DNA from: an uncultured Acidobacteriota bacterium
GTDB lineage: Bacteria > Acidobacteriota > Thermoanaerobaculia > UBA5066 > Gp7-AA6
Direction of reading: 5' to 3'
Length of the DNA stretch: 64,000 nucleotides
NCBI GenBank assembly: GCA_963764025.1
Contig: CAVXRK010000011.1
Coordinates: forward strand, 320,999-384,998
The notes under the pieces are model-generated. The model was not told the DNA's origin and searched no databases. It worked only from the letters and a program-made list of their open reading frames with translations. The translations under genes were made by a program, and so were the position numbers. Below, piece by piece: positions 11,513 through 22,345 of the stretch. The stretch's first letter is position 1; each line of letters opens with the position of its first letter.

Positions 11513-12496
11513 ATGTCGCGTGCGCCGCGGATCGAAATCGCCGGAGGCGTCTACCACGTGATCGCGCGCGGGAACGAACGGCGCGACATCTTTCGAGACG
11601 ACTCCGACCGGCATCTCTACCTGGCGCGCCTCGCGGAATGCCGTGACCGATACCGATTCGGAGTCCTCGCCTACTGCCTCATGCCGAATCACGTCCACCT
11701 CGCCGTCGAACGAGGCCCGGTTCCCCTTTCAAAGATCATGCTCGCGCTCCACTCCTACTACAGCCAGAAATTCAATTTTCGACATGAGCGTGTCGGGCAC
11801 CTGTTCCAGGGCCGATACAAGGCTTTTCTGGTCGAACTCGACCGATACCTCGCTGCGCTCGTTCGCTACATCCACCTGAACCCGGTCAAGGCCGGCGTCG
11901 CCGATCGACCCGAGAGCTATCCGTGGTCGAGCGACCGGTGGTATCGCGAAGGTGGCGGTCCAAGCTGGCTCGACGTCGACTTCGTCCTCGCGCGTCTTGC
12001 GCCCAGCCGGTCCAGGGCCTGCGCCGCTTACCGGCGGTGGATGGGGTCCGGTGAACCGGACGACTACGACCGCGCGCGCCCGATCGGCCGCGTCGTGAAG
12101 GGCGACGAGAAGTTCGCCAAACGCTCGATGCGCGAGGCCCGCGTCACTCTTCCCAGAAGAAGTGGTTGGACGCCGTCGAGGTTCGCCGCCGCCGCGAGCG
12201 CGTTTCAGGGATTCTCACTCGGCCGGCTGAAGGGACCGTCCCAAGCCCGAGCGGAGTCACGGGCTCGGCTGATCACGGTCTTCGTCGCGAGGCGCGATCA
12301 TTCGATTCCAGCGTCGGCGCTGGCCAGGTGCTTCGACCGCGACGAATCCGCGTTCGCGCACGGCCTCCGAAGGCTCGAACGTGCGATCGCACGAAATCCA
12401 GAGCTCGCAAGGCACGTCGAGCGCGTGGCCGCCGCGCTGGGCCCCGAAGCGTCAGACTTACAGGTCAGGCCCCAGATTTCAGACTTTCAGGGCTGA
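11513..12496 (+). mobile_element. REP-associated tyrosine transposase (RAYT; IS200/IS605 Y1 HUH family) with a C-terminal extension
   Basis: RIEIAGGVYHVIARGNERRDIF...VLAYCLMPNHVHLAVE (HuH motif)...HLFQGRYKAFLV (catalytic Tyr region). Flanked by inverted REP doublets. The ORF reads through into the right REP (…SDFQG*). Confidence 0.8.
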
Positions 12497-12500
12497 CCCC
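12451..12500. repeat. REP doublet in inverted orientation on the right flank of the RAYT
   Basis: TCAGACTTTCAGGGCTGACCCC is the reverse complement of GGGGTCAGCCCTGAAAGTCTGA, preceded by the variant GTCAGACTTACAGGTCAGGCCCC. Confidence 0.8.
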
Positions 12501-13946
12501 AGGTCGAGGAGGGAGTTGAAGGAGCCGTGGGGGTCGGCCTCGCGCAGCGAATGGGAGGGGTCGGGGAGCCAGCGGGCCCCGTCGACGACGAGCTTGTAGC
12601 GGTGGCGGCCGGGCGGCGGGGCGGGGAGAGCCGGCGCGCCACACGCCGTCCGCCTGCCGCGCCATCGGAAGGCGCGACGCGTCCCAGCCGTTGAAGTCGC
12701 CGGCCACGGCGACCGACGTGGCGTCGTCGTCGTGGAAGGTGAAAACGAGGCGGCCGTCCTCGACGCGGGGCGGCCCACCGACTCGGCCGGCGCCGGCGTG
12801 CGCCTCCCGCCGCGCGACCGCCACCGCCGCGGCGGGGTCCACGACGCCATGCCCCTGGCGCAGCGCCGCGATGCCCGGGACCGGGCTCGCGCTCGCGAGC
12901 AGGATCCGGCGGACTTCCGCCGGCGTGAGCGCCGGATTGGCCTCGAGCATCTGCGCGACGACCGACGCGACGACCGGCGCCGCGAACGAGGTCCCGTCCA
13001 CGTGCTGATAGTGCGCAGCCACGATCTTCTCGGCGCGAAGCCGCTCTTCGACCCAGCTCCGCAGTGCCGCCGCCTGACGCGGGAGCTCCGGGATTCCCCC
13101 ACGGACCTCGTCCGCGAGACGCGCCAGGCGGTAATCCGGCGCCGATGCCAGCCGTGTCAGCGTCTGCGCGCGCCGCCAGGCCGGCGTGCCCGGCAGGATC
13201 GGCGCCGCGACCCACATCGCCGGAGCGATCAATTCCGGCTTGACGAGACCGTCGGCCGTCACGCCGAAGCTCGAGCAGTACGCCGCGAGGTGCCGCCGCT
13301 CGGGATCGTTTGCGTCGTCATATCCGCCGACGGCGATGACCGAGGGCGCCGTGGCTGGAGGCAATACGCGGGGCGCGGGTCCGCACCCGGAATTTCCCGC
13401 GGCGGCCACGAGCACCATGCCGCGGGCGACGGCCGCCTCGGCGAGCTGGTTGATCCGGCTCTCCGCGAGCGTCCGGTCCGCGTCGCCGCCGAGCGACATG
13501 CTGACGATCCGTATCGCGTGCCGTTCGTGGTTCGCGAGCACCCACTCGAGTCCGCGCTCGATCGCGTCGTCGGTGATTCGCCCGTCCCGCCCCACCCGCA
13601 CCAGCACGAGCGCCGCCTCGGGCGCGAGCCCGCGGTAGACGCCGTCGGAAAGCAACCCGCTGCCGGCGGCCGCGACGCACGTCTGCGTGCCGTGCCAGCA
13701 GTCCGGGGCCGGTATCTCCGCGTTCTCCAGCATGCCCTGCGGATCGTGGACGTCGTGATACGCCCGGATCCGCTCGCCCGGCTCGGTGATGTCGGGATGG
13801 GGATGGAAGCCTGAGTCCAGGAAGGCGACCGTCACCCCGCGGCCGCGGAGCGTCCCGTCGTCGCCGAAGCGCTCCGGGGTCGAGACCACGGCGAACCGAT
13901 TGGGCGCGTGGCCGTGGCCCGCGTGCAGCTCTCCCCCGTCGCTCAT
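12479..13946 (-). CDS. cytoplasmic S8 subtilisin-like serine peptidase with a C-terminal CBM48/E-set (glycogen-binding-like) domain; one frameshift near 12650
   Basis: Catalytic triad in context: VAFLDSGF (Asp), HGTQTC (His), GTSFAAPVVAS (Ser). No signal peptide. C-terminus reads RLVFTFHDDDATSVAVAGDFNGWDASRLPMARQADGVWR, then continues in the adjacent frame as ALPAPPPGRHRYKLVVDGARWLPDP (shift in a GG run). The stop is supplied by a REP. Confidence 0.75.
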
Positions 13947-14006: not shown

Positions 14007-14858
14007 TCAGCGAGAGGCTGGCAGGACGACGCCCTGGAAGAGTCCCTCGGCCACCCAGTCGCGCAGCCACCGGAAGAGCTGGTCGCCCGCGGAGCCCTGG
14101 AGCCCACGCGCCGCCGTTGCGACGGCCTTGCCGAACGGCCGGCCCTTGACCAGTGCAGCGAGGAAGTCGTGGGCCGGCTTCGAGAGGTCGAGGCGCCAGA
14201 CTTCGTAGTTCTTCCGATAGACGGCGATCCAGGTGGGGCGCCGTCCGGTCGGCGGATGATCGTGATCGTCGTCCTTGACCGACTGCAGGTAGGCGTTGAC
14301 GGGATACGCGAACGCCGCGACCCGCAGGGCCGCCGACGGACGGAGCACGACCCCGGGCCAGGCCGCCTCCGGGACGCGCGCGATCTCTTCGGCCGGCCAG
14401 GCGGGCGACTCGGGCGCGTCGAAGACCTCGGTGACGAGGCTTTCGAGGCGGGCGAGGTCGGCGACGAAGGCCTTCCGGCGGATGCCCTGCGAGCCCCGGA
14501 TGAATTCGGGAAGGCGGTCGCCCAGGCGGTTCAGGGTGTAGCTCCGGGAGGGGTGCGCCGCGACATAGCGCGTCACGAGGTCCGCGAAGTCCTCGGCTCC
14601 GAGCAGGTGCGCCACGGCCGGAAAGTCGTTCTCGAGCGCCTCGACCATGCGGAGCAGATACATGCCCTGGTAGACGCCGACCCGTTCGACCGGCGTCAGC
14701 GTCTTCGACGGCCGGATCACCCGCGCGATCTCGTCCGGCTCGAGCTCGGCGCGCGCAGCGGGCGATGTCACGGCCTCCTCGGCCGTGCCCGGCTGCTCGA
14801 TGACCGCCTGCATCCAGCGCTGGAGGCGCGGGAGCGGCAGCTCAAGAGGCCGCGGCAA
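14007..14858 (-). CDS. DUF2063-family protein (BufC/MbnC-like partner of a DUF692 MNIO enzyme)
   Basis: 283 aa, immediately downstream of and overlapping the DUF692 gene. Paralogous to the 18072..18932 gene (shared LPFL...LARLE, YVAAHP/YLGVFP regions). Confidence 0.7.
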   Translation of the reverse strand: MPRPLELPLPRLQRWMQAVIEQPGTAEEAVTSPAARAELEPDEIARVIRPSKTLTPVERVGVYQGMYLLRMVEALENDFPAVAHLLGAEDFADLVTRYVAAHPSRSYTLNRLGDRLPEFIRGSQGIRRKAFVADLARLESLVTEVFDAPESPAWPAEEIARVPEAAWPGVVLRPSAALRVAAFAYPVNAYLQSVKDDDHDHPPTGRRPTWIAVYRKNYEVWRLDLSKPAHDFLAALVKGRPFGKAVATAARGLQGSAGDQLFRWLRDWVAEGLFQGVVLPASR

Positions 14859-15771
14859 TCGCCTTCTCCTCGTTCCGGAACCGCCGCGCCTTGAGGGCCT
14901 CCGCGTGGACCTCCTCGAACGACGGGATCTCGCCGTCCCACTCGAAGAGCGTCGCGACGTTGCCCGTCCGCGCGACCGCGTGGCGATAGAGCTCCCAGAC
15001 CTCGGGAATCGCCCGGTCGCTGTGCGTGTCGAGGATGTGCGTGCCCTTGTTCGTGTGGCCGGCGAGGTGGTACTGCGCCACGCGCGACGGATCGATCGCG
15101 TCGAGGTAGAGCTTCGGGTCGAATCCGTGGTTGAACGCGCTGACGTAGACGTTGTTGACGTCGAGGAGCATGCCGCAGTCGGCCTTCTCCATGAGCCGGC
15201 CGAAAAACTCCCACTCCGGCATGCTCGAGGCGGAAAACTCCGCGTAGGTCGACGCGTTCTCGAGGATCAGGGGCCGCTCCAGAACGTCGGAGACGATTCT
15301 CACGCGCTCGGCGACGTGGGAAAGCGCCTCCTCGGTGAGCGGCATCGGGAGCAGGTCGTGCGTGTTTCGTCCGGAAACGCCGGTCCAGCACAGGTGGTCC
15401 GACACCCAGAGGGCGCGGGTGCGGGCGGCGAGGGCTTTCAGTTTCGCGAGGTATCCGTGGTCGAGCGGATCGGTCGAGCCGATCGACATCGACACGCCGT
15501 GGAGCACGACCGGATAGCGCTCGGCCACCTGGTCGAGGACCCAGGCGGGCCGGCCGCCGGTGTCGAGGTAGTTCTCGGAGAGGACCTCGAAGAAGTCGAT
15601 CTCGGGCTTCTTCTCGAGGATGTGGGGATAGTGGACCGTGCGGAGACCGATGCCGACGCCGAGGTCGGGAAAGTTCCAGCGGTTTCGGGTGAGCGGCTTC
15701 ACGTGAGACTCGATCTTACGATTGGAAAGTGAACCGGGGGGCGCGGCCTCGGCCGCGACCCCCCGCTTCAC
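14842..15771 (-). CDS. DUF692 multinuclear non-heme iron oxidative enzyme (MNIO; MbnB/BufB-like)
   Basis: LGVGIGLRTVHYPHILE...VLHGVSMSIGSTDPLDHGYLAKLKAL...[11 protein letters not shown]...LILENASTYAEF...GMLLDVNNVYVSAFNHGFDP...YHLAGH..LDTHSDRAIPEVWELY...TLFEWDGEIPSFEE. An alternative GTG start lies about 15705. Confidence 0.85.
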   Translation of the reverse strand: MKRGVAAEAAPPGSLSNRKIESHVKPLTRNRWNFPDLGVGIGLRTVHYPHILEKKPEIDFFEVLSENYLDTGGRPAWVLDQVAERYPVVLHGVSMSIGSTDPLDHGYLAKLKALAARTRALWVSDHLCWTGVSGRNTHDLLPMPLTEEALSHVAERVRIVSDVLERPLILENASTYAEFSASSMPEWEFFGRLMEKADCGMLLDVNNVYVSAFNHGFDPKLYLDAIDPSRVAQYHLAGHTNKGTHILDTHSDRAIPEVWELYRHAVARTGNVATLFEWDGEIPSFEEVHAEALKARRFRNEEKAIAAAS

Positions 15772-15781
15772 GACGGTGAAG

Positions 15782-16204
15782 TCAGGCCGCCTTCTTCGGA
15801 GCCACCGGGACCGCGCAGCCGCCCTTGCCCTTGCAGGAGTTCTTGCCGGCGCAGCCGTTCTCGCCGCTCTTGCAGCCGCCCTGGCCCTTGCAGGAGTTCA
15901 TGCCCTTGCAGGAGTGCTTCATGTCGGCCGAAGCGCAGCCGCCCTTGCCCTTGCAGGAGTTCTTGCCGGAACAGCCGTTGTCGCCGGCCTTGCAGCCGCC
16001 CTTCCCCTTGCACGAGTTCATGCCCTTGCAGACGTGCTTGTCGGAGGTCGCGGCCGCCTTGTCCTTGGCGCCCTTCGCCCGCCTGCCGCTCTTGCCGCCG
16101 GACTTCGCTTCGTTCTTCGGCAGAGCCGAGAGCAGCTGGGAGCCCGCGAGAACGCCGGCCACCGCGAGACCGATCGCCTTCACCTTCAGATCGCCCTTCT
16201 TCAT
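15782..16204 (-). CDS. Sec-signal Cys-rich RiPP precursor, bufferin BufA2-like (BUF_6/12Cys type); 12 Cys in two tandem 33-aa repeats
   Basis: AAGGAG SD 7 nt before the ATG. MKKGDLKVKAIGLAVAGVLAGSQLLSALP signal peptide. Core: HVCKGMNSCKGKGGCKAGDNGCSGKNSCKGKGGCA, then a second copy HSCKGMNSCKGQGGCKSGENGCAGKNSCKGKGGCA. Lies directly upstream of the MNIO and DUF2063 genes. Confidence 0.8.
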   Translation of the reverse strand: MKKGDLKVKAIGLAVAGVLAGSQLLSALPKNEAKSGGKSGRRAKGAKDKAAATSDKHVCKGMNSCKGKGGCKAGDNGCSGKNSCKGKGGCASADMKHSCKGMNSCKGQGGCKSGENGCAGKNSCKGKGGCAVPVAPKKAA

Positions 16205-16277
16205 CCCTGTCTCCTTTCGTCTCCCCGTCTCGGGGTCGCGAATCACCGCTGCAGCCGACATGGCTGCCGCGACTTAC

Positions 16278-16303
16278 CCACGTTGCCGGGTCAAGCCGTT
16301 CGA
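16278..16303 (-). promoter_or_regulatory. candidate ECF-type promoter (GAACGG-N15-CGTGGG) upstream of the precursor operon; speculative
   Basis: Minus-strand sequence tcGAACggcttgacccggcaaCGTgggtaag lies about 75 nt upstream of the precursor ATG. A sigma54-like GG-N10-GC (TGGGTAAGTCGCGGCA) overlaps it. Confidence 0.2.
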
Positions 16304-16539
16304 GCCCCTCGAGCGACTTGAGCCGCGAATTCTATCCCCCCCGCCCGGTGTACCGCGCCACCCTTCGCCTTCCGGAAGCCGCCACCCGCCACGGTGAACG
16401 AGACCCGCGTCCCGCGCCGGTCTCCCGCGGAGTACGCGGAAACCGCCAGGGCTGGATCTCGATCCGAGGAGCGGGCGAGCAGATCGAAGAGGTTGCGCGT
16501 CCGGGCGTCCCCCGGCTCGGCAAAGATGTGGATGGTCAT
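16291..16539 (-). CDS. small hypothetical protein (82 aa), doubtful
   Basis: High-GC3 ORF MTIHIFAEPGDARTRNLFDLLARSSDRDPALAV... immediately upstream of the precursor gene. No recognisable family. It overlaps the putative promoter region. Confidence 0.2.
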   Translation of the reverse strand: MTIHIFAEPGDARTRNLFDLLARSSDRDPALAVSAYSAGDRRGTRVSFTVAGGGFRKAKGGAVHRAGGIEFAAQVARGARTA

Positions 16540-16648
16540 GGGGCTTGGATGCCCCGGCCGTCCCGAGGTTTCGGCGCTCCCCCCGCGCCTCCGGGACGAT
16601 CCTGAAGGATGGGTTAAGAATTTCCCGAGGAGCCCGGGCCGGGCCGCC

Positions 16649-17655
16649 TCAGGCGGAGCGTGGGGGCGGGAAGCGTCCGGCCTGGACGTCGCTCAGGAAA
16701 CCCAGGAGGTGCCGGAAGTAGGGCTCCTGGTCGTCCCACATCGCGAGGTGGCTGCCGTTCTCGCAAATCGCCACCCGGGAACGCGGAAGAAGGGTCCCCA
16801 TCCGGCGGATGTCGTCCGGGTTCATCTCGTCGTACTTCGCGCCGACGACGAGCGTCGGAACGGAGATCTTCGAAGGTCGTCCCAGCGGTCCCAGTCCTTG
16901 AAGGTCCCCGTCACGACGAACTCGTTGGGCCCCTGCATCGTGCCGTAGACCTGGTTGTTGATGTGCTTGAACGCGCGCGCGACCGGGTCCGGCCAGGGAT
17001 CGACGCGGCACACGTGACGCTTGTAGACCCCCTCGTACATCGCCTCCTGGTACTCGGGAGCGTCGTACTTGCCCTGGGCTTCGTACTTCTCGAGCGTCGC
17101 CAGCAGATCCTTCGGCAGCGCCGCGCGGAGCTTCGCGACGTAGGCCATGTACGACGGAATCGAGGCCGTCATGCTCGAGAGCACCAGGCCCTTCAGGTGC
17201 TTCTGGTATTTCAGCGCGTACTCGATCGCGAGCATGCTGCCCCAGGACTGACCATAGAGATAGAAGTCCTCGAGCCCGAGGGCCGACCGCACCTGCTCGA
17301 CCTCCTCGCGGAACCGGTCGATCCTCCAGAGCGACGGGTCGTCGGGCTGGTCGGAGTAGAAGGATCCGAGCTGGTCGTAGTAGTAGAACTCGACGCCCGC
17401 CTGCGGCAGGAAGTCTTCGAAGCACTCGAAGTACTCGTGCGTGACGCCCGGCCCGCCGTGGAGCGTCAGCATCTTGATCGGTCCCCTGCCGAGCTTCTTC
17501 GTCCAGACCTTGTACTTGCCGTCGACGGGGATCAGCCGGATGCCGGCGGTCTTGACCGCGGGTGTCGGCGCGGGACCCGGCCCCGCCGCGGCGAAGCGGG
17601 AGTGGGCGAGCGATGCGGCGGCGAGGGAGAGGAGAGTCCGGCGGTCGAGAGGCAT
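16649..17655 (-). CDS. exported alpha/beta hydrolase, proline iminopeptidase-like (S33 family); frameshift near 16850
   Basis: Tat/Sec-like N-terminus MPLDRRTLLSLAAASLA. HGGPGVTHEYF. Nucleophile elbow GQSWGS. The C-terminus continues in another frame (PKISVPTLVVGAKYDEMNPDDIRRMGTLLPRSRVAICENGSHLAMWDDQEPYF). Confidence 0.7.
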
Positions 17656-17754: not shown

Positions 17755-18075
17755 CTACGACTTCTTGACCGACTTCTTGGCCGCCGGCTTTTCCGCCGCC
17801 ACCTTCGTCAGGCTCCCGCCCTGGATCTTCAGACAGGTCTCGGGTTCGAGCCGCAGGAACCCCTGGCCCTTGCAGGCATTCGAGCCGTGGCAGCCGGAGT
17901 GGCGGCATCCTTCGGCGCCGCAGTCGCCGGTGCCCTTGCACTTGTTGACGCCCCAGCACGGCTTGAGCTTGCCGTCGTCGGGAGCGGGTTTCTGGTCCTG
18001 GGCCCGGAGAGCCGCCGGCAGCGACAGCACTCCGGCCAGCGCGGCCGCGAGCAGGGACTTCGACCGAGGGTTCAT
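17755..18075 (-). CDS. DUF2282-type Sec-signal Cys-rich RiPP precursor (bufferin BufA1-like)
   Basis: [35 protein letters not shown] signal peptide. Core: KPCWGVNKCKGTGDCGAEGCRHSGCHGSNACKGQGFLRLEPETCLKIQGGSL matches the DUF2282 pattern (C.G..KC..DC....sC.G.n.CKG.G....TC....GG). Its ATG overlaps the stop of the DUF2063 gene (ATGA). Confidence 0.8.
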   Translation of the reverse strand: MNPRSKSLLAAALAGVLSLPAALRAQDQKPAPDDGKLKPCWGVNKCKGTGDCGAEGCRHSGCHGSNACKGQGFLRLEPETCLKIQGGSLTKVAAEKPAAKKSVKKS

Positions 18076-18932
18076 GAGAATTCCTCCTTGAGGACGTCGA
18101 GAGCCCCGGTCCATCCGGTGCTCCGCTTGATCACGAAGACGTCGCGCTCGGCGAGAGCGCGGAACGACTCGACGAGGCGGTGGAGCCCGGCCGCGTCCGA
18201 GCCGGCGCCCGTCAGCTCCTGCAGGTCCGGAAGCGTCGCGTCGCCGCACGACGCGGCCTCGACGAGGGCGGCCTCGGCGTCGTCGATCCGTTCGACGCGC
18301 ACGCGGCCGTCGCGGCGGAAGATCAGGACGTTCGCGGGCCGGCCCTCGAGGGCGATCGAGATCGCCTCGTCGTCATCCTCGAATCGGCAGGCCCAGAGCT
18401 CGTCGAGCGGCCAGGCCGAGCGCACGAGCGCGACACCCGGAAGAAGGCCGAACCGCAGGGCGAGGAGCTCCTCGGGGGTGCGGCGGCGCAGGTCCTCCCA
18501 TCGGGCGGGGGTTGCGTCCGCCGCGACGAACGACTCGCCGATGGTCCGCTCCAGCCGTGCGAGGTCCGGCAGGAACGGGAGGTCCACGGTCGCCCGGTCG
18601 AACTCGAGAAAGGCAGGGAGCCGGTCGCCGACGCGGGCGAGGTCGAACGAGCGGGGCGGGAAGACGCCGAGGTAGCGCGTCATGAGCGCCTCGAAGGCGT
18701 CGGCGCCGAGGATCCGCCGGATCGCCGCGTACTCGAGGCCCGCGACCTCGACGATCCGGGCCACGTAGCCGTGGGCGTAGACGTGCCAGCGGTCGGCGAC
18801 CGATCCGCGGCGGGGCCGGCGGAAGGCCGTCTCGCGTTCCGCCTCCGACCGCGGCCGCCGGCCGGTGAGGTCGTCGATGAAACCCTGCTGCGCGAGACGA
18901 AGCTCGTGGACGTCAGGCCGCGGTCGCCGCAT
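18072..18932 (-). CDS. DUF2063-family protein (second copy)
   Basis: [24 protein letters not shown]...[54 protein letters not shown]. 286 aa. Located between the MNIO and precursor genes. Confidence 0.7.
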
Positions 18933-19780
18933 GAAACGCCTCCTCCGAATTTCGCTGAATCTCTTCGGCGCGCCGCGCCTCGGCGAGCACCGTCGCGAGC
19001 GGCGGGATTGCCGCGTCCCACTCGATGAGGGTCGGCACGGGGCCAAACCGGGCCACGGCGGACCGATAGAGGCCCCAGACCGCGTCGGCGACGGGATGGT
19101 CGTGGGTGTCGATGACGAGGTCGCCGTGGTCTTCGTGGCCGGCCAGATGCATCTGCCCGACCCGATGCGCCGGCAGCCGCCTGAGGAAACGCCGCGCGTC
19201 GAGGCCGTGGTTGCGGGCGTTGACGTAGAGGTTGTTGACGTCGAGCAGGATCCCGCAGTCGGCTTCGTCCGCGACCGCCGCGAGGAAGTCCGCCTCCGAG
19301 AGGCGGGACGCCGCGTGCTCGACGTAGCTCGAGATGTTCTCGACGAGGATGCGGCGGCCCGAGGAACTCCTGGACGCTCGCGGATCTTCCGCGCCGCGCG
19401 ACACACGGCCTCTTCGGTGAGCAGCAGCGGGAGCAGGTCGTGGCTGTTGTGGCCGCCGAGGCCGGTCCAGCAGAGGTGGTCCGAGACGATGACCGGAGCA
19501 CGCGGTCACAGAGGGCCTTGAGGCGACGCAGGTATCCGCCATCGACGGGCTCGGCCGAACCGAGCGACATCGAGACGCCGTGGAGCGCGACCGGGTAGTC
19601 CCGGCGCACTCGGTCGAGCATCGCGAGCGGGCGGCCCCCGTCGACCATGAAGTTCTCCGAGATCGCTTCGAAGAACGGAACCGCAGGCCGCTCGGCGAGG
19701 ATTTCGTCGAAGTGCTCCTTGCGCAGACCGATCCCGCATCCCGCGAAGCCGCGCGGGCGAAAGCCGCGCCCGCGTTTCAC
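18913..19780 (-). pseudogene. DUF692 MNIO (second copy), broken by about 3 frameshifts (GGG runs and others)
   Basis: Frame 1: [28 protein letters not shown]...[28 protein letters not shown]. Frame 3: [30 protein letters not shown]. Frame 2: [12 protein letters not shown]...[18 protein letters not shown]...MHLAGH...[16 protein letters not shown]...[11 protein letters not shown]. Confidence 0.65.
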
Positions 19781-19784
19781 TTGA

Positions 19785-20243
19785 TCACCGCCGCCCCGCG
19801 AGGGCGATCTCCTCGTCGACCTGGGGCGAATCGCCCGAGACGCCGATCGCGCCGACGAACTGGCCGCCCGAGAAGATCGGCACGCCGCCCTGGAGCGGAG
19901 TGAAGTCCTCGAGGGCGAGCGTGACGATGCGGCCGTTCCTGACCTGCTCCTCGAAGTACCGCGTCGGCCGCTTGAAGTGCGCCGCGGTGCGCGCCTTGCC
20001 GATGCCGACCTTGATCGAGCCGACCTGCGTCGTGTCGAGCCGCTCGAGGAGGAGCAGATTCCCCGCGTCGTCGACGAGGACGATCACGACCGGGAGCCCC
20101 CGCCGTTTCGCGTCGGCTTCCGCGGCCGCGGCCGCCGCCTTCGCGCCCTCGAGGGTGAGAACCTTCTTGTCCGCGACCTGCTCCGCGCGGGCGGAGGCGG
20201 TGAAGATCGTCATTGCGAGCAGAGTCGTGGCGGTTTTGTTCAT
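19785..20243 (-). CDS. secreted DUF336 protein (GlcG/HbpS-like heme-binding family)
   Basis: Signal peptide [20 protein letters not shown]. Core: [21 protein letters not shown]...[12 protein letters not shown]....[39 protein letters not shown]. Confidence 0.75.
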
Positions 20244-20402: not shown

Positions 20403-21340
20403 TAGCCGCGGGTCGTCGTGCGGATGCGGCCGATCGAGTGGTTCGCGGCCACGAAGAGAGTCGAGCCGTCTTCGCCGAAGGCGCAGTTGCCGGTGGCCAC
20501 ACCCGTCTCGATCGAGCCGAGGAGGGCGCCGTCGGGCGCGAACACGGAGACGCCCCGGGCGCCGCGGCCCACACGTTGCCGTGGACGTCGACCTTGAGGC
20601 TGTCGGGAACGCCCGGGCCGGAGGCCGCCCAGGCACGAGCCGTCGTGGAAGCACTCGCGCGGGCCCGAGCGTGCCGTCGGGCTTCACGTCGAAGGCCGTA
20701 CCAGACGGGCCGCGCGGGATCGGCGTTGGCGACGTAGAGCGTCTTCTCGTCGGGGGAGAAGCCGATCCCGTTGGTGGCCCGCGACCTCGGATGGTCAGCA
20801 GCGTCAGCGACGCCGTCCCGCGCGAGCCGGTAGACGCCCTGGAACGGGAGCTCTTTGGCCGGGATCGCCGAAGCGCGCGCGGGCAGGCCGAAGGGCGGGT
20901 CGGTGAAGTAGAGATCGCCGTTCGATTTGAAGGTCAGGTCGTTAGGGCTGTTGAGGCGCTTTCCGTCGAACCGGTCGGCCAGGACCGGTCAAGGCGGCCG
21001 TCCGCCTCGCGGCGCACGATCCGCCGGTCGCCGTGCTGGCAGAAGATCAGCCGGCCCTGCGAGTCGAAGGTCGAGCCCGTTCGAGCCGGGCTCGCGGCCC
21101 GGTGAACGGCGCGGCGCCCGGAGTATCCGCTCGGCGAGAGGTAGGTCGGTCAGGCCCTCGCCCGCCTTCCAGCGGAGGATCGCGTTCGAAGGGACGTCGG
21201 AGAAAAGGAGGGCCTTCTCGCGTCGCGATCCCAGACCGGCCCCTCCGCCCAGGCCACGCCGTCGGCGACCCGTCTCGAGCGTCGCACCGGCGCGGCAGCG
21301 AGCGCGTCGAGGCGCGCGTCCTTGCGGACCACGCGGCCGA
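20403..21340 (-). pseudogene. SMP-30/gluconolactonase/LRE-like (SGL) protein, copy A, multiply frameshifted
   Basis: N-terminal ADGVAWAEGPVWD...ALLFSDVPSNAILRWKAGEG. C-terminal GVPDSLKVDVHGNVWAAAPG, then after a shift in a GGGG run GVSVFAPDGALLGSIETGVATGNCAFGEDGSTLFVAANHSIGRIRT*. Boundaries are approximate. Confidence 0.55.
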
Positions 21341-21344
21341 GCGG

Positions 21345-22345
21345 GCCCGAGGGACGGATGCCCGGAATCCCCAGCCGCATCTTGTAGAGGCCCGATCCGG
21401 GCGCAGAGGTAGAGCGTCTTGCCGTCCTCGTCTCCCCACGCGAAGTTGTGCGGGTGCTTCGGCGGCACGATCGTTCCGAGGTGGCTGCCGTCGGGCCCGA
21501 GAGGATCCACAGCCCGCCGGGCCCGAGACGTAGAGGTTGCCCTGCCGCGTCGACCTTGATCCCGTCGAGCGCGTCCTCGCCGGGCGCCGCGGTCATATCG
21601 AAGAACACCTCGCCCGTTCGCCGAGCCGTGCCGTCGGCGTCGGACTCGTAGCGCATGATGACCTTCTTCTTCTCGTCCCAGTGGCCGACGTAGAGGAATT
21701 CTCGTCGGGCGAGAAGGCGATGCCGTTCGGCCCGGTCAGCTCGGTGCGTCAGCAGCTGCAGCTTGCCTTCCTGCGCAGCGCGTAGACGCCGCTGAACGGC
21801 AGCTCCTTGCGCGGGTCGTCGAAGAATTTCGGGAGGCCGAACGGCGGGTCGGTGAAGTAGAGCGTGCCGTCCGACCGGTAGACGAGGTCGTTCGGGCTGT
21901 TGAGACGCTTGCCCTCGTACCGGTCGGCGAGCACCGTCATCGCGCCGTCCTGTCCAGGCGGACGACGCGGCGGTTGCCGTGCTGGTCGATGGTGAGCCGG
22001 CCCTCGCGCGTCGAGCGTGAGGCCGTTGGAGCCGGGCTGGCCGTACTCGGCGATGTCGGCGCCGGAGTACCCGCTCGGGCTGCCGGAAGGACCGAGACGC
22101 TGGCCCGTCGGGCGCGTATTGTAGATGATGTTGGCTGTTGGGGTCGCGAGAAGAGCAGGTACCTCCGTCGGCGCACCCAGACCGGGCCTTCGGTGAACTG
22201 GAAGCCCTCCGCGAGCTTCCAGACCTTCGGGTTCGGCCCGCACGATCGCGTCGAGCGCCGGATCGTTGCGGACCACCTCACGTTCACCTCGGCCGGCGTG
22301 ATCGCATCGGCGCCGGATCGCCCGGGTAGAATTCGAGCGTGGCGC
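21345..22345 (-). pseudogene. SGL gluconolactonase-like protein, copy B (tandem paralog), multiply frameshifted
   Basis: Pieces lie in three frames: PKVWKLAEGFQFTEGPVW; GKRLNSPNDLVYRSDGTLYFTDPPFGLPKFFDDPRKELPFSGVY; GIKVDAAGQP..GGLWIL; GSHLGTIVPPKHPHNFAWGDEDGKTLYLCA. Confidence 0.5.

Follow-up and report, generated by a model that had tools for sequence, protein, structure and literature searches.

Bufferins, copper-binding peptides that are modified by enzymes, are believed to shield bacteria against copper stress. In 2021 six-Cys precursors were first described beside genes for DUF692 and DUF2063 (PMC8692599), and the name BUF_6/12Cys was given in 2024 (PMC11626156). The founding member of Buf2 is CCNA_03001 of Caulobacter vibrioides, which is found with BufB2 and BufC2 (PMC11626156, PMC12452194). 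A survey from 2025 found 6 Cys in 90% of the Buf2 precursors and 12 in the rest; these roughly 10%, of which WP_077285100 is a published example, are the two-module subclass and were modelled as "duplicated 6-Cys-containing domains" (PMC12452194). A captophorin paper from 2026 places the bufferin 2 precursors in a "Cys-Lys" group (PMC13097082). In the literature searched this subclass is described only bioinformatically, and no experiments on one of its 12-Cys members came up. Here we analyse a stretch of 64,000 nucleotides (nt), called the window below, from contig CAVXRK010000011.1 of an uncultured Acidobacteriota bacterium. A gene in it very probably encodes the precursor of a two-module Buf2 (BufA2, BUF_6/12Cys, "Cys-Lys captophorin") bufferin, and, judged from the sequences of the homologs, its two-module 12-Cys layout is an old and widely shared architecture of the family. 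The class was already published in 2024-2025, so the locus adds one example of a known family.

The precursor is encoded by an uninterrupted open reading frame (ORF) of 140 codons plus stop, and the protein of 140 amino acids (aa) is MKKGDLKVKAIGLAVAGVLAGSQLLSALPKNEAKSGGKSGRRAKGAKDKAAATSDKHVCKGMNSCKGKGGCKAGDNGCSGKNSCKGKGGCASADMKHSCKGMNSCKGQGGCKSGENGCAGKNSCKGKGGCAVPVAPKKAA. Full-length homologs with identities up to 89% and a coverage of 100% align with it from end to end. The frame is therefore not an artefact of an indel, which an initial annotation of this DNA had named as a possible refutation of its own reading. The layout proposed in that annotation, a signal peptide, a Lys/Ala-rich spacer and two modules of C-x5-C-x5-C-x6-C-x5-C-x5-C with 12 Cys in all, is the one that we find:

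15782..16204, minus strand: bufA2-like precursor gene with 12 Cys (intact ORF, NF050166 match, full-length homologs)
16211..16216, minus strand: Shine-Dalgarno sequence AAGGAG, 6 nt upstream of the ATG at 16204 (read from the sequence)
16124..16204, minus strand: signal peptide, residues 1-27 (inspection and hydropathy; conservation in homologs)
16043..16123, minus strand: Lys/Ala/Gly-rich linker, residues 28-54 (variable, with low conservation in the family consensus)
15926..16042, minus strand: module 1, residues 55-93, DKHV-C-x5-C-x5-C-x6-C-x5-C-x5-C-ASA
15806..15925, minus strand: module 2, residues 94-133, DMKHS-C-x5-C-x5-C-x6-C-x5-C-x5-C-AVP

The assignment to Buf2 is carried by profile comparisons. 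The precursor matches the NCBIfam profile NF050166 (Cu_RiPP_BufA2) in two stretches with an E-value of 4.2e-15 and 55.7 bits, all 73 aligned homologs match the same profile (best E 3.1e-22), and there is no match of the precursor to Pfam PF10048 (DUF2282) at E <= 0.01. BufA2 was represented in these comparisons by the NCBIfam profile and by a profile of single-domain 6-Cys bufferin-like precursors; a tblastn search of plasmids gave no match and hence no PGAP-named BufA2 for comparison. The profile-profile comparison (hhalign) of the 12-Cys family with these single-domain relatives gave a probability of 98.2% and an E-value of 3.5e-14, and its alignment brings the signal peptide and Cys I-V into one common register. 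With a BufB-type MNIO gene and a DUF2063 gene downstream, these results agree with the earlier proposal that the precursor is of the BufA2 type (BUF_6/12Cys) and not DUF2282. The Cys-containing part is no low-complexity linker either, as the initial annotation had considered; the core is strongly conserved and the 73-sequence alignment has 25 invariant columns which include all 12 Cys. Invariant alongside the Cys are Asn, Gly and the module-2 His two residues before the first Cys, and the corresponding His of module 1 (K-H-x-C, before Cys I) is kept in 99 of 104 homologs; this His may, as a speculation, serve as an extra ligand. The V-P after the last Cys is nearly invariant (V in 103 and P in 104 of 104 homologs). 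As a side observation, the uncharacterised family DUF7640 (Pfam PF24646) gives weak matches in 36 of the 73 homologs (best E 5.5e-6) and scores 16.8 bits against the precursor, where the gathering score is 28.1; it may overlap the 12-Cys bufferin group.

Several points weigh against the assignment. The BufA2 score of 55.7 bits is under the curated NCBI cutoff of 60 bits, and the best stretch spans only positions 22-63 of the 79 in the profile. The modules are without the C-terminal aromatic/beta-strand segment and the last Cys of the single-domain relatives, and the AlphaFold2 model built on the 73-sequence alignment was too poor to be informative (predicted local distance difference test score 47.7, predicted template modelling score 0.17). 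There is no MNIO gene within 5 kb in 13 of 80 related precursor genes. Modification, export and metal binding are predicted for this locus by homology, and since no DoxX, extracytoplasmic function (ECF) sigma factor or copper-resistance gene adjoins the operon, the proposed role in copper handling is likewise drawn wholly from homology.

Some of these points would also fit a precursor that is an unmodified, exported metallothionein-like metal binder or redox buffer, with the neighbouring MNIO acting elsewhere or being dispensable. We consider this unlikely. The 13 precursor genes that have no MNIO nearby, the sizeable proportions of stand-alone precursor genes reported in the 2025 survey (PMC12452194), and a protein with 11% Cys, no hydrophobic core and no confident fold would fit such a binder, but at this locus bufB follows directly after the precursor gene, as it does in 67 of the 80 genome loci compared, which come from several phyla, and in about 62 bufC comes next. 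The Cys stand in the C-K-G / N-x-C-K-G context typical of "Cys-Lys" MNIO substrates (PMC13097082), and free thiols would form disulfides in the oxidising periplasm. Metallothioneins have C-C, C-x-C or C-x-x-C clusters, are cytoplasmic and have no modifying enzymes, whereas the precursor has a signal peptide, an adjacent MNIO gene, no C-C or C-x-C clusters and a minimum Cys spacing of 5 residues. No metallothionein was matched by the precursor in sequence searches of Pfam or the PDB; the PDB search gave nothing at all at E <= 1.

The Cys of the putative Buf2 precursor are residues 59, 65, 71, 78, 84, 90, 99, 105, 111, 118, 124 and 130, which gives gaps of 5,5,6,5,5,8,5,5,6,5,5. Lys comes directly after eight of the 12 (C-K) and directly before none of them, the motif CKG(K/Q)GGC is present in four copies and the EGKCG motif is absent. 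Tandem Repeats Finder reports a period of 120 nt at 15813..16039 with 1.9 copies, 90% matches and no indels, and nested periods of 57 and 18 nt. Over the 40-aa period modules 1 and 2 are identical in 31 of 40 aa and 99 of 120 nt; for the 32-aa cores, counted from Cys to Cys, the numbers are 28 of 32 aa and 88 of 96 nt. The best self-identity of residues 54-133 is 0.775, and none of 20000 composition-preserving shuffles reached it (mean 0.24, maximum 0.395). Thus the tandem modules of the initial annotation are real, but its repeat unit of 33 aa is not, the period being 40 aa with a core of 32 aa. Each module in turn consists of two half-repeats of 13 residues, C-x-G-x-N-x-C-K-G-x-G-G-C, and the four copies in the precursor are CKGMNSCKGKGGC, CSGKNSCKGKGGC, CKGMNSCKGQGGC and CAGKNSCKGKGGC.

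To the initial annotation the duplication looked recent at the DNA level. Read in this way it would be a lineage-specific tandem duplication by which a 6-Cys precursor was freshly expanded in this organism. We find this scarcely credible. Homologs were scored among 8000 candidates, of which 7258 proteins reached E <= 1e-3, and of the best 120 homologs 104 have the lattice 5,5,6,5,5,(7|8),5,5,6,5,5 and the same module boundaries. Genes for relatives occur in no fewer than 585 species genomes from Acidobacteriota (Thermoanaerobaculia, Vicinamibacteria, Blastocatellia, Holophagae and Terriglobia), Planctomycetota, Gammaproteobacteria and Elusimicrobiota. The residues by which the two modules differ are also shared across homologs: before Cys I module 1 has V/A/I and module 2 S/A/G/D, position 10 is K/Q in module 1 and Q/L/M in module 2, and Cys VI is followed by A-[TS]-A in module 1 and by A-V-P in module 2. 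These signature columns point to separate module-1 and module-2 groups, which is at variance with a recent origin.

The high identity at the DNA level, with 90% matches and no indels, would seem to favour a young duplication, but it can be accounted for by constraint on the sequence together with the extreme codon bias of the gene. The mean identity of modules is 82% within a protein, 80% between the same modules of different proteins and 80% across modules between proteins; since these values are alike, the similarity reflects constraint and not youth. Of the 28 identical residues 25 have identical codons, where the codon usage of the neighbouring genes predicts 18.8 +/- 2.1 (P = 0.003), but the usage of the precursor gene itself (GGC in 26 of 28, AAG in 27 of 27) predicts 24.6. 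The expectation thus depends on the codon table used, and the test cannot prove recency. Moreover, the divergence between the modules, 8 of 96 nt, equals their divergence from the orthologous copies in the related contig L001 (8 of 96 and 4 of 96). Close relatives with a single module do exist, P0045 and P0058, but these 6-Cys proteins are chimeric, joining the head of module 1 to the tail of module 2, and look like secondary deletions through unequal recombination, or collapses in the assembly. The number of repeats also varies in the other direction, with 15 Cys in P0028 and P0034, 18 in P0026 and P0037, and 25 in P0035 (24-25 Cys variants). The homologs contain between 2 and 8 half-repeats of 13 residues, and since an odd number (5) also occurs, the half-repeat is probably the elementary unit of the family.

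Compared to the known systems the precursor resembles Buf2/BufA2 in being a Cys-rich protein with a signal peptide and a significant match to the BufA2 profile, and the operon with precursor, MNIO and DUF2063 genes but no DoxX is that of buf2 in Caulobacter (PMC11626156). It differs in that its score falls just under the curated cutoff, in that its modules match only the Cys-loop part of the profile, and in its source, which is an uncultured Acidobacteriota-type genome and not one of the Pseudomonadota. The single-domain 6-Cys precursors, among them the second precursor of the window (17758..18072) and its homologs (alignment A3), likewise have an MNIO and a DUF2063 protein as partners. They have C-x-G-x-N-x-C-K-G-x-G-x-C ... 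C-x-G-x-N-x-C-K-G in the same register, but they consist of one domain ending in a beta-strand region, G-[FYW]-L-x-L ... C-L-K-I-Q-G-G, whose last Cys stands 12 residues behind Cys V. In the modules here Cys V is followed by G-G-C, so that the third Cys that completes the second half-repeat takes the place of the aromatic/beta-strand segment at the C-terminus and of the last Cys in it. Most of these single-domain relatives are flagged PF10048 (DUF2282/BufA1) in precomputed Pfam data. Buf1/BufA1 (DUF2282, PF10048) shares the enzyme pair, the export route and the predicted role; it has four Cys, two modified and two in a disulfide, on the scaffold of a small folded protein, whereas the precursor here has 12 Cys and no PF10048 match. 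BufA1 and BufA2 form a small domain with a two-stranded sheet and a disulfide between the first and the last Cys; for the precursor here AlphaFold2 gave no confident fold. The Buf_EGKCG/oxazolin/fontiphorin group (Lys-Cys captophorins) also has repetitive Cys-containing precursors with signal peptides, which receive 5-thiooxazoles from an MNIO and a DUF2063 partner and bind copper (PMC13097082, PMC11252979). Their motif is E-G-K-C-G in 5-mer or 17-mer repeats, while the motif here is N-x-C-K-G on a 6-residue lattice, and an N-A-C-K-G substrate was not processed by FonBC (PMC13097082).

The enzymes that would act on the precursor are encoded behind it. The gene order is bufA-bufB-bufC on one strand, with the precursor first in the operon and a hairpin between it and bufB:

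15729..15771, minus strand: GC-rich RNA hairpin that begins 11 nt after the precursor stop and has a weak U tract
14842..15702, minus strand: bufB, bufferin maturase of the MNIO family (ORF open to 15771; likely start GTG at 15702)
14007..14813, minus strand: bufC, DUF2063 / HvfC-like partner (ORF open to 14858; likely start ATG at 14813)

The bufB product matches NCBIfam NF050167 (MNIO_BufB) with 349.8 bits, where the cutoff is 310, Pfam PF05114 with 358.5 bits and the protein of PDB entry 3BWW with an E-value of 8.5e-50. Its likely start is GTG at 15702 because the hairpin falls inside the 5' extension of the ORF. The start of bufC was placed from an alignment to the ortholog in L001; its product scores 72.8 bits against Pfam PF09836 (DUF2063; cutoff 27.2) and matches the NCBIfam profile HvfC at E 1.1e-14, which is under the cutoff of that profile. 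It has been proposed that MNIO enzymes recognise the Lys that follows the Cys (PMC13097082). The motif after the catalytic Asp is E-W-D-G-E in BufB and E-R-D-F-N in 3BWW, which is of the Lys-Cys type; BufB and its orthologs usually have an acidic residue one or two positions past this Asp, which would fit the proposed recognition only loosely.

The 101-nt stretch with the hairpin folds with a minimum free energy of -54.8 kcal/mol (z -4.9); it was not picked up in the scan for consensus terminators. When the first 40 related loci were examined, most proved to have a GC-rich hairpin just after the stop as well, though with another sequence; in 28 of them z is <= -2.5, and in some loci U runs follow. 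The hairpin is probably an intercistronic attenuator or stabiliser which would favour the precursor over the enzymes.

Modelled on the characterised Buf1 and Buf2 of Caulobacter and on related systems (PMC11626156, PMC13097082), the pathway would start in the cytoplasm, where BufB and its partner BufC would oxidise Cys to 5-thiooxazoles, each of which lowers the mass by 4 Da. The modified peptide would be exported by the general secretory (Sec) system and its signal peptide removed by signal peptidase, to give a mature peptide of about 113 residues which would be very basic and rich in Gly and Lys. In the periplasm it would sequester copper through the N/S donors of the thiooxazoles and so buffer copper stress. 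Caulobacter Buf2 is copper-induced and protective, and four of its six Cys are modified (-4 Da each) while the first and the last are not; Buf1 binds Cu 1:1 in an N2S2 site (PMC11626156). By analogy to this Buf2 a plausible number of modified Cys here would be 8, and the 12 sites of the initial annotation are better taken as an upper bound, with a range of 8 to 12. Up to 12 are possible because all six Cys of each module are found in Gly/Lys-rich loop contexts and none in the strand contexts which hold the unmodified Cys of the single-domain relatives. Buf1 employs a pair of thiooxazoles for each Cu; at this ratio a peptide with 8-12 modified Cys in its two modules would bind roughly 4-6 Cu.

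For the export step the N-terminus of the precursor is the relevant part, and it contains the only hydrophobic stretch. A Lys-rich n-region, MKKGDLKVK (residues 1-9), is followed by the hydrophobic core AIGLAVAGVLAGSQLL (residues 10-25), in which AVAG.LAG is kept in homologs, and the small residues LSA at 25-27 are the likely cleavage site by inspection and hydropathy only. The signal has K-K and no RR motif and therefore looks Sec-type rather than of the twin-arginine translocation (Tat) type. About 50 of the 120 closest homologs have an R-R-x-F motif before the hydrophobic core (MNRRDFNKL, MDRREFTKIM) as in Tat signals, and about 22 have a lipobox-like Cys; these homologs, judged by motif, lie among P0019-P0119. 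The two bufferin survey papers describe Sec signals only and never mention Tat. The linker of residues 28-54 differs by an indel from that of the L001 ortholog, which is 89% identical. The mature part (residues 28-140) contains 21% Gly, 20% Lys and 11% Cys, has a net charge of about +19 and is without a hydrophobic segment.

Such a composition, the missing beta-strand/last-Cys segment and the lack of a confident AlphaFold2 fold would fit a different structural picture, in which the 12-Cys proteins are not two folded 6-Cys bufferin domains but a scaffold-free array of four 13-residue half-repeats. We offer this tentatively, as a possible but rather doubtful picture. If it is true, the peptide would be a disordered, metallothionein-like poly-thiooxazole copper sponge with up to 12 Cys modified, and the repeat number would change by unequal recombination, variants with 6, 12, 15, 18 and 24-25 Cys having been seen. 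The Tat-type signals in about 40% of the relatives would then mean export after modification or metal loading.

It could also be imagined that the two modules are split by proteolysis after export into two independent 6-Cys peptides, with the S8 subtilase encoded at 12465..13946 as the processing enzyme. Its gene lies directly downstream of bufC, but in only two of the 80 loci, the close relatives L001 and L010, is there an S8 gene beside the locus, and in L001 a gene for a TonB-dependent receptor, absent here, separates it from bufC. The linker between the modules, ASADMKHS, is short and exposed as a cleavage site might be, but its A-[ST]-A-x-K-H is strongly conserved with an invariant His, as if it were functional within the binding array and no mere cleavage spacer. 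The characterised bufferins are processed by signal peptidase only (PMC11626156). We regard the splitting as highly improbable and keep to a two-module Buf2 peptide. The S8 peptidase and the alpha/beta hydrolase were rejected as conserved partners of the operon as they are present only in close relatives.

With regard to the start of the operon, the sequence GAAAGGAG at the Shine-Dalgarno site is conserved in nine related loci. A longer precursor ORF from 16261 was rejected on three grounds: it is the ATG at 16204 that has the Shine-Dalgarno sequence in front of it, the residues by which the longer form would be extended are unconserved, and the position of this earlier start reads ATT in three relatives. 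A consensus scan for sigma-70 promoters and intrinsic terminators gave no sites, and an Rfam search of 15600..16700 gave no match. In the upstream region 16205..16340 (minus strand) several elements are conserved among the close relatives L001-L010: a GATAGAATT box (16336..16328) that resembles a -10 element, a CCCC-n5-GGGG hairpin directly before the Shine-Dalgarno sequence and, at about 16266..16250, the inverted repeat GCAGCC-ATGTC-GGCTGC. Covariation in the region is negligible (term -0.01 kcal/mol), and 3 of 12 predicted pairs stay paired through two-sided changes. These conserved elements may be a promoter with an operator or a leader.

A second bufferin-type locus is found about 1.5 kb away at 17758..19780 (minus strand); an HbpS-like gene adjoins it at 19785..20243. 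Its gene order is unusual: the MNIO gene (about 18931..19780) is followed by the DUF2063 gene (18075..18914) and the precursor comes last (17758..18072, minus strand). The same arrangement is seen in L001, L010 and L011. This precursor has 7 Cys, C-x5-C-x5-C-x4-C-x4-C-x5-C-x12-C, and stands between the BufA2 and BufA1 families since it scores 55.8 bits against BufA2 yet its homologs are mostly flagged PF10048 (BufA1).

The bufA, bufB and bufC genes are intact here; the bufB gene beside the 12-Cys precursor in L001 is apparently truncated and was called as 109 aa. Relative to intact L001 orthologs there are frame changes in the MNIO gene of the second locus (about 19499 and at 19350-19377), in the alpha/beta hydrolase gene (about 16870), in the S8 peptidase gene (about 12620) and in an SGL-like gene (20500-21950). 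So many frame changes in about 10 kb suggest indel errors in the assembly rather than pseudogenes. Beside the S8 peptidase gene an ORF of 327 aa at 11513..12496 (plus strand) resembles a tyrosine transposase associated with repetitive extragenic palindromic (REP) sequences, and the syntenic gene in L001 is called PF01797 (Y1_Tnp).

The current picture of the bufferin family is not changed by this locus. The main result is that the reading of the two modules as a recent duplication has been corrected and the claim of 12 modified sites tempered. The locus is a clean and intact example of a 12-Cys Buf2 from an uncultured Acidobacteriota-type genome, and it could be used to test to what number of Cys in a substrate of several modules an MNIO adds its modification, and what number of Cu ions one such peptide binds.

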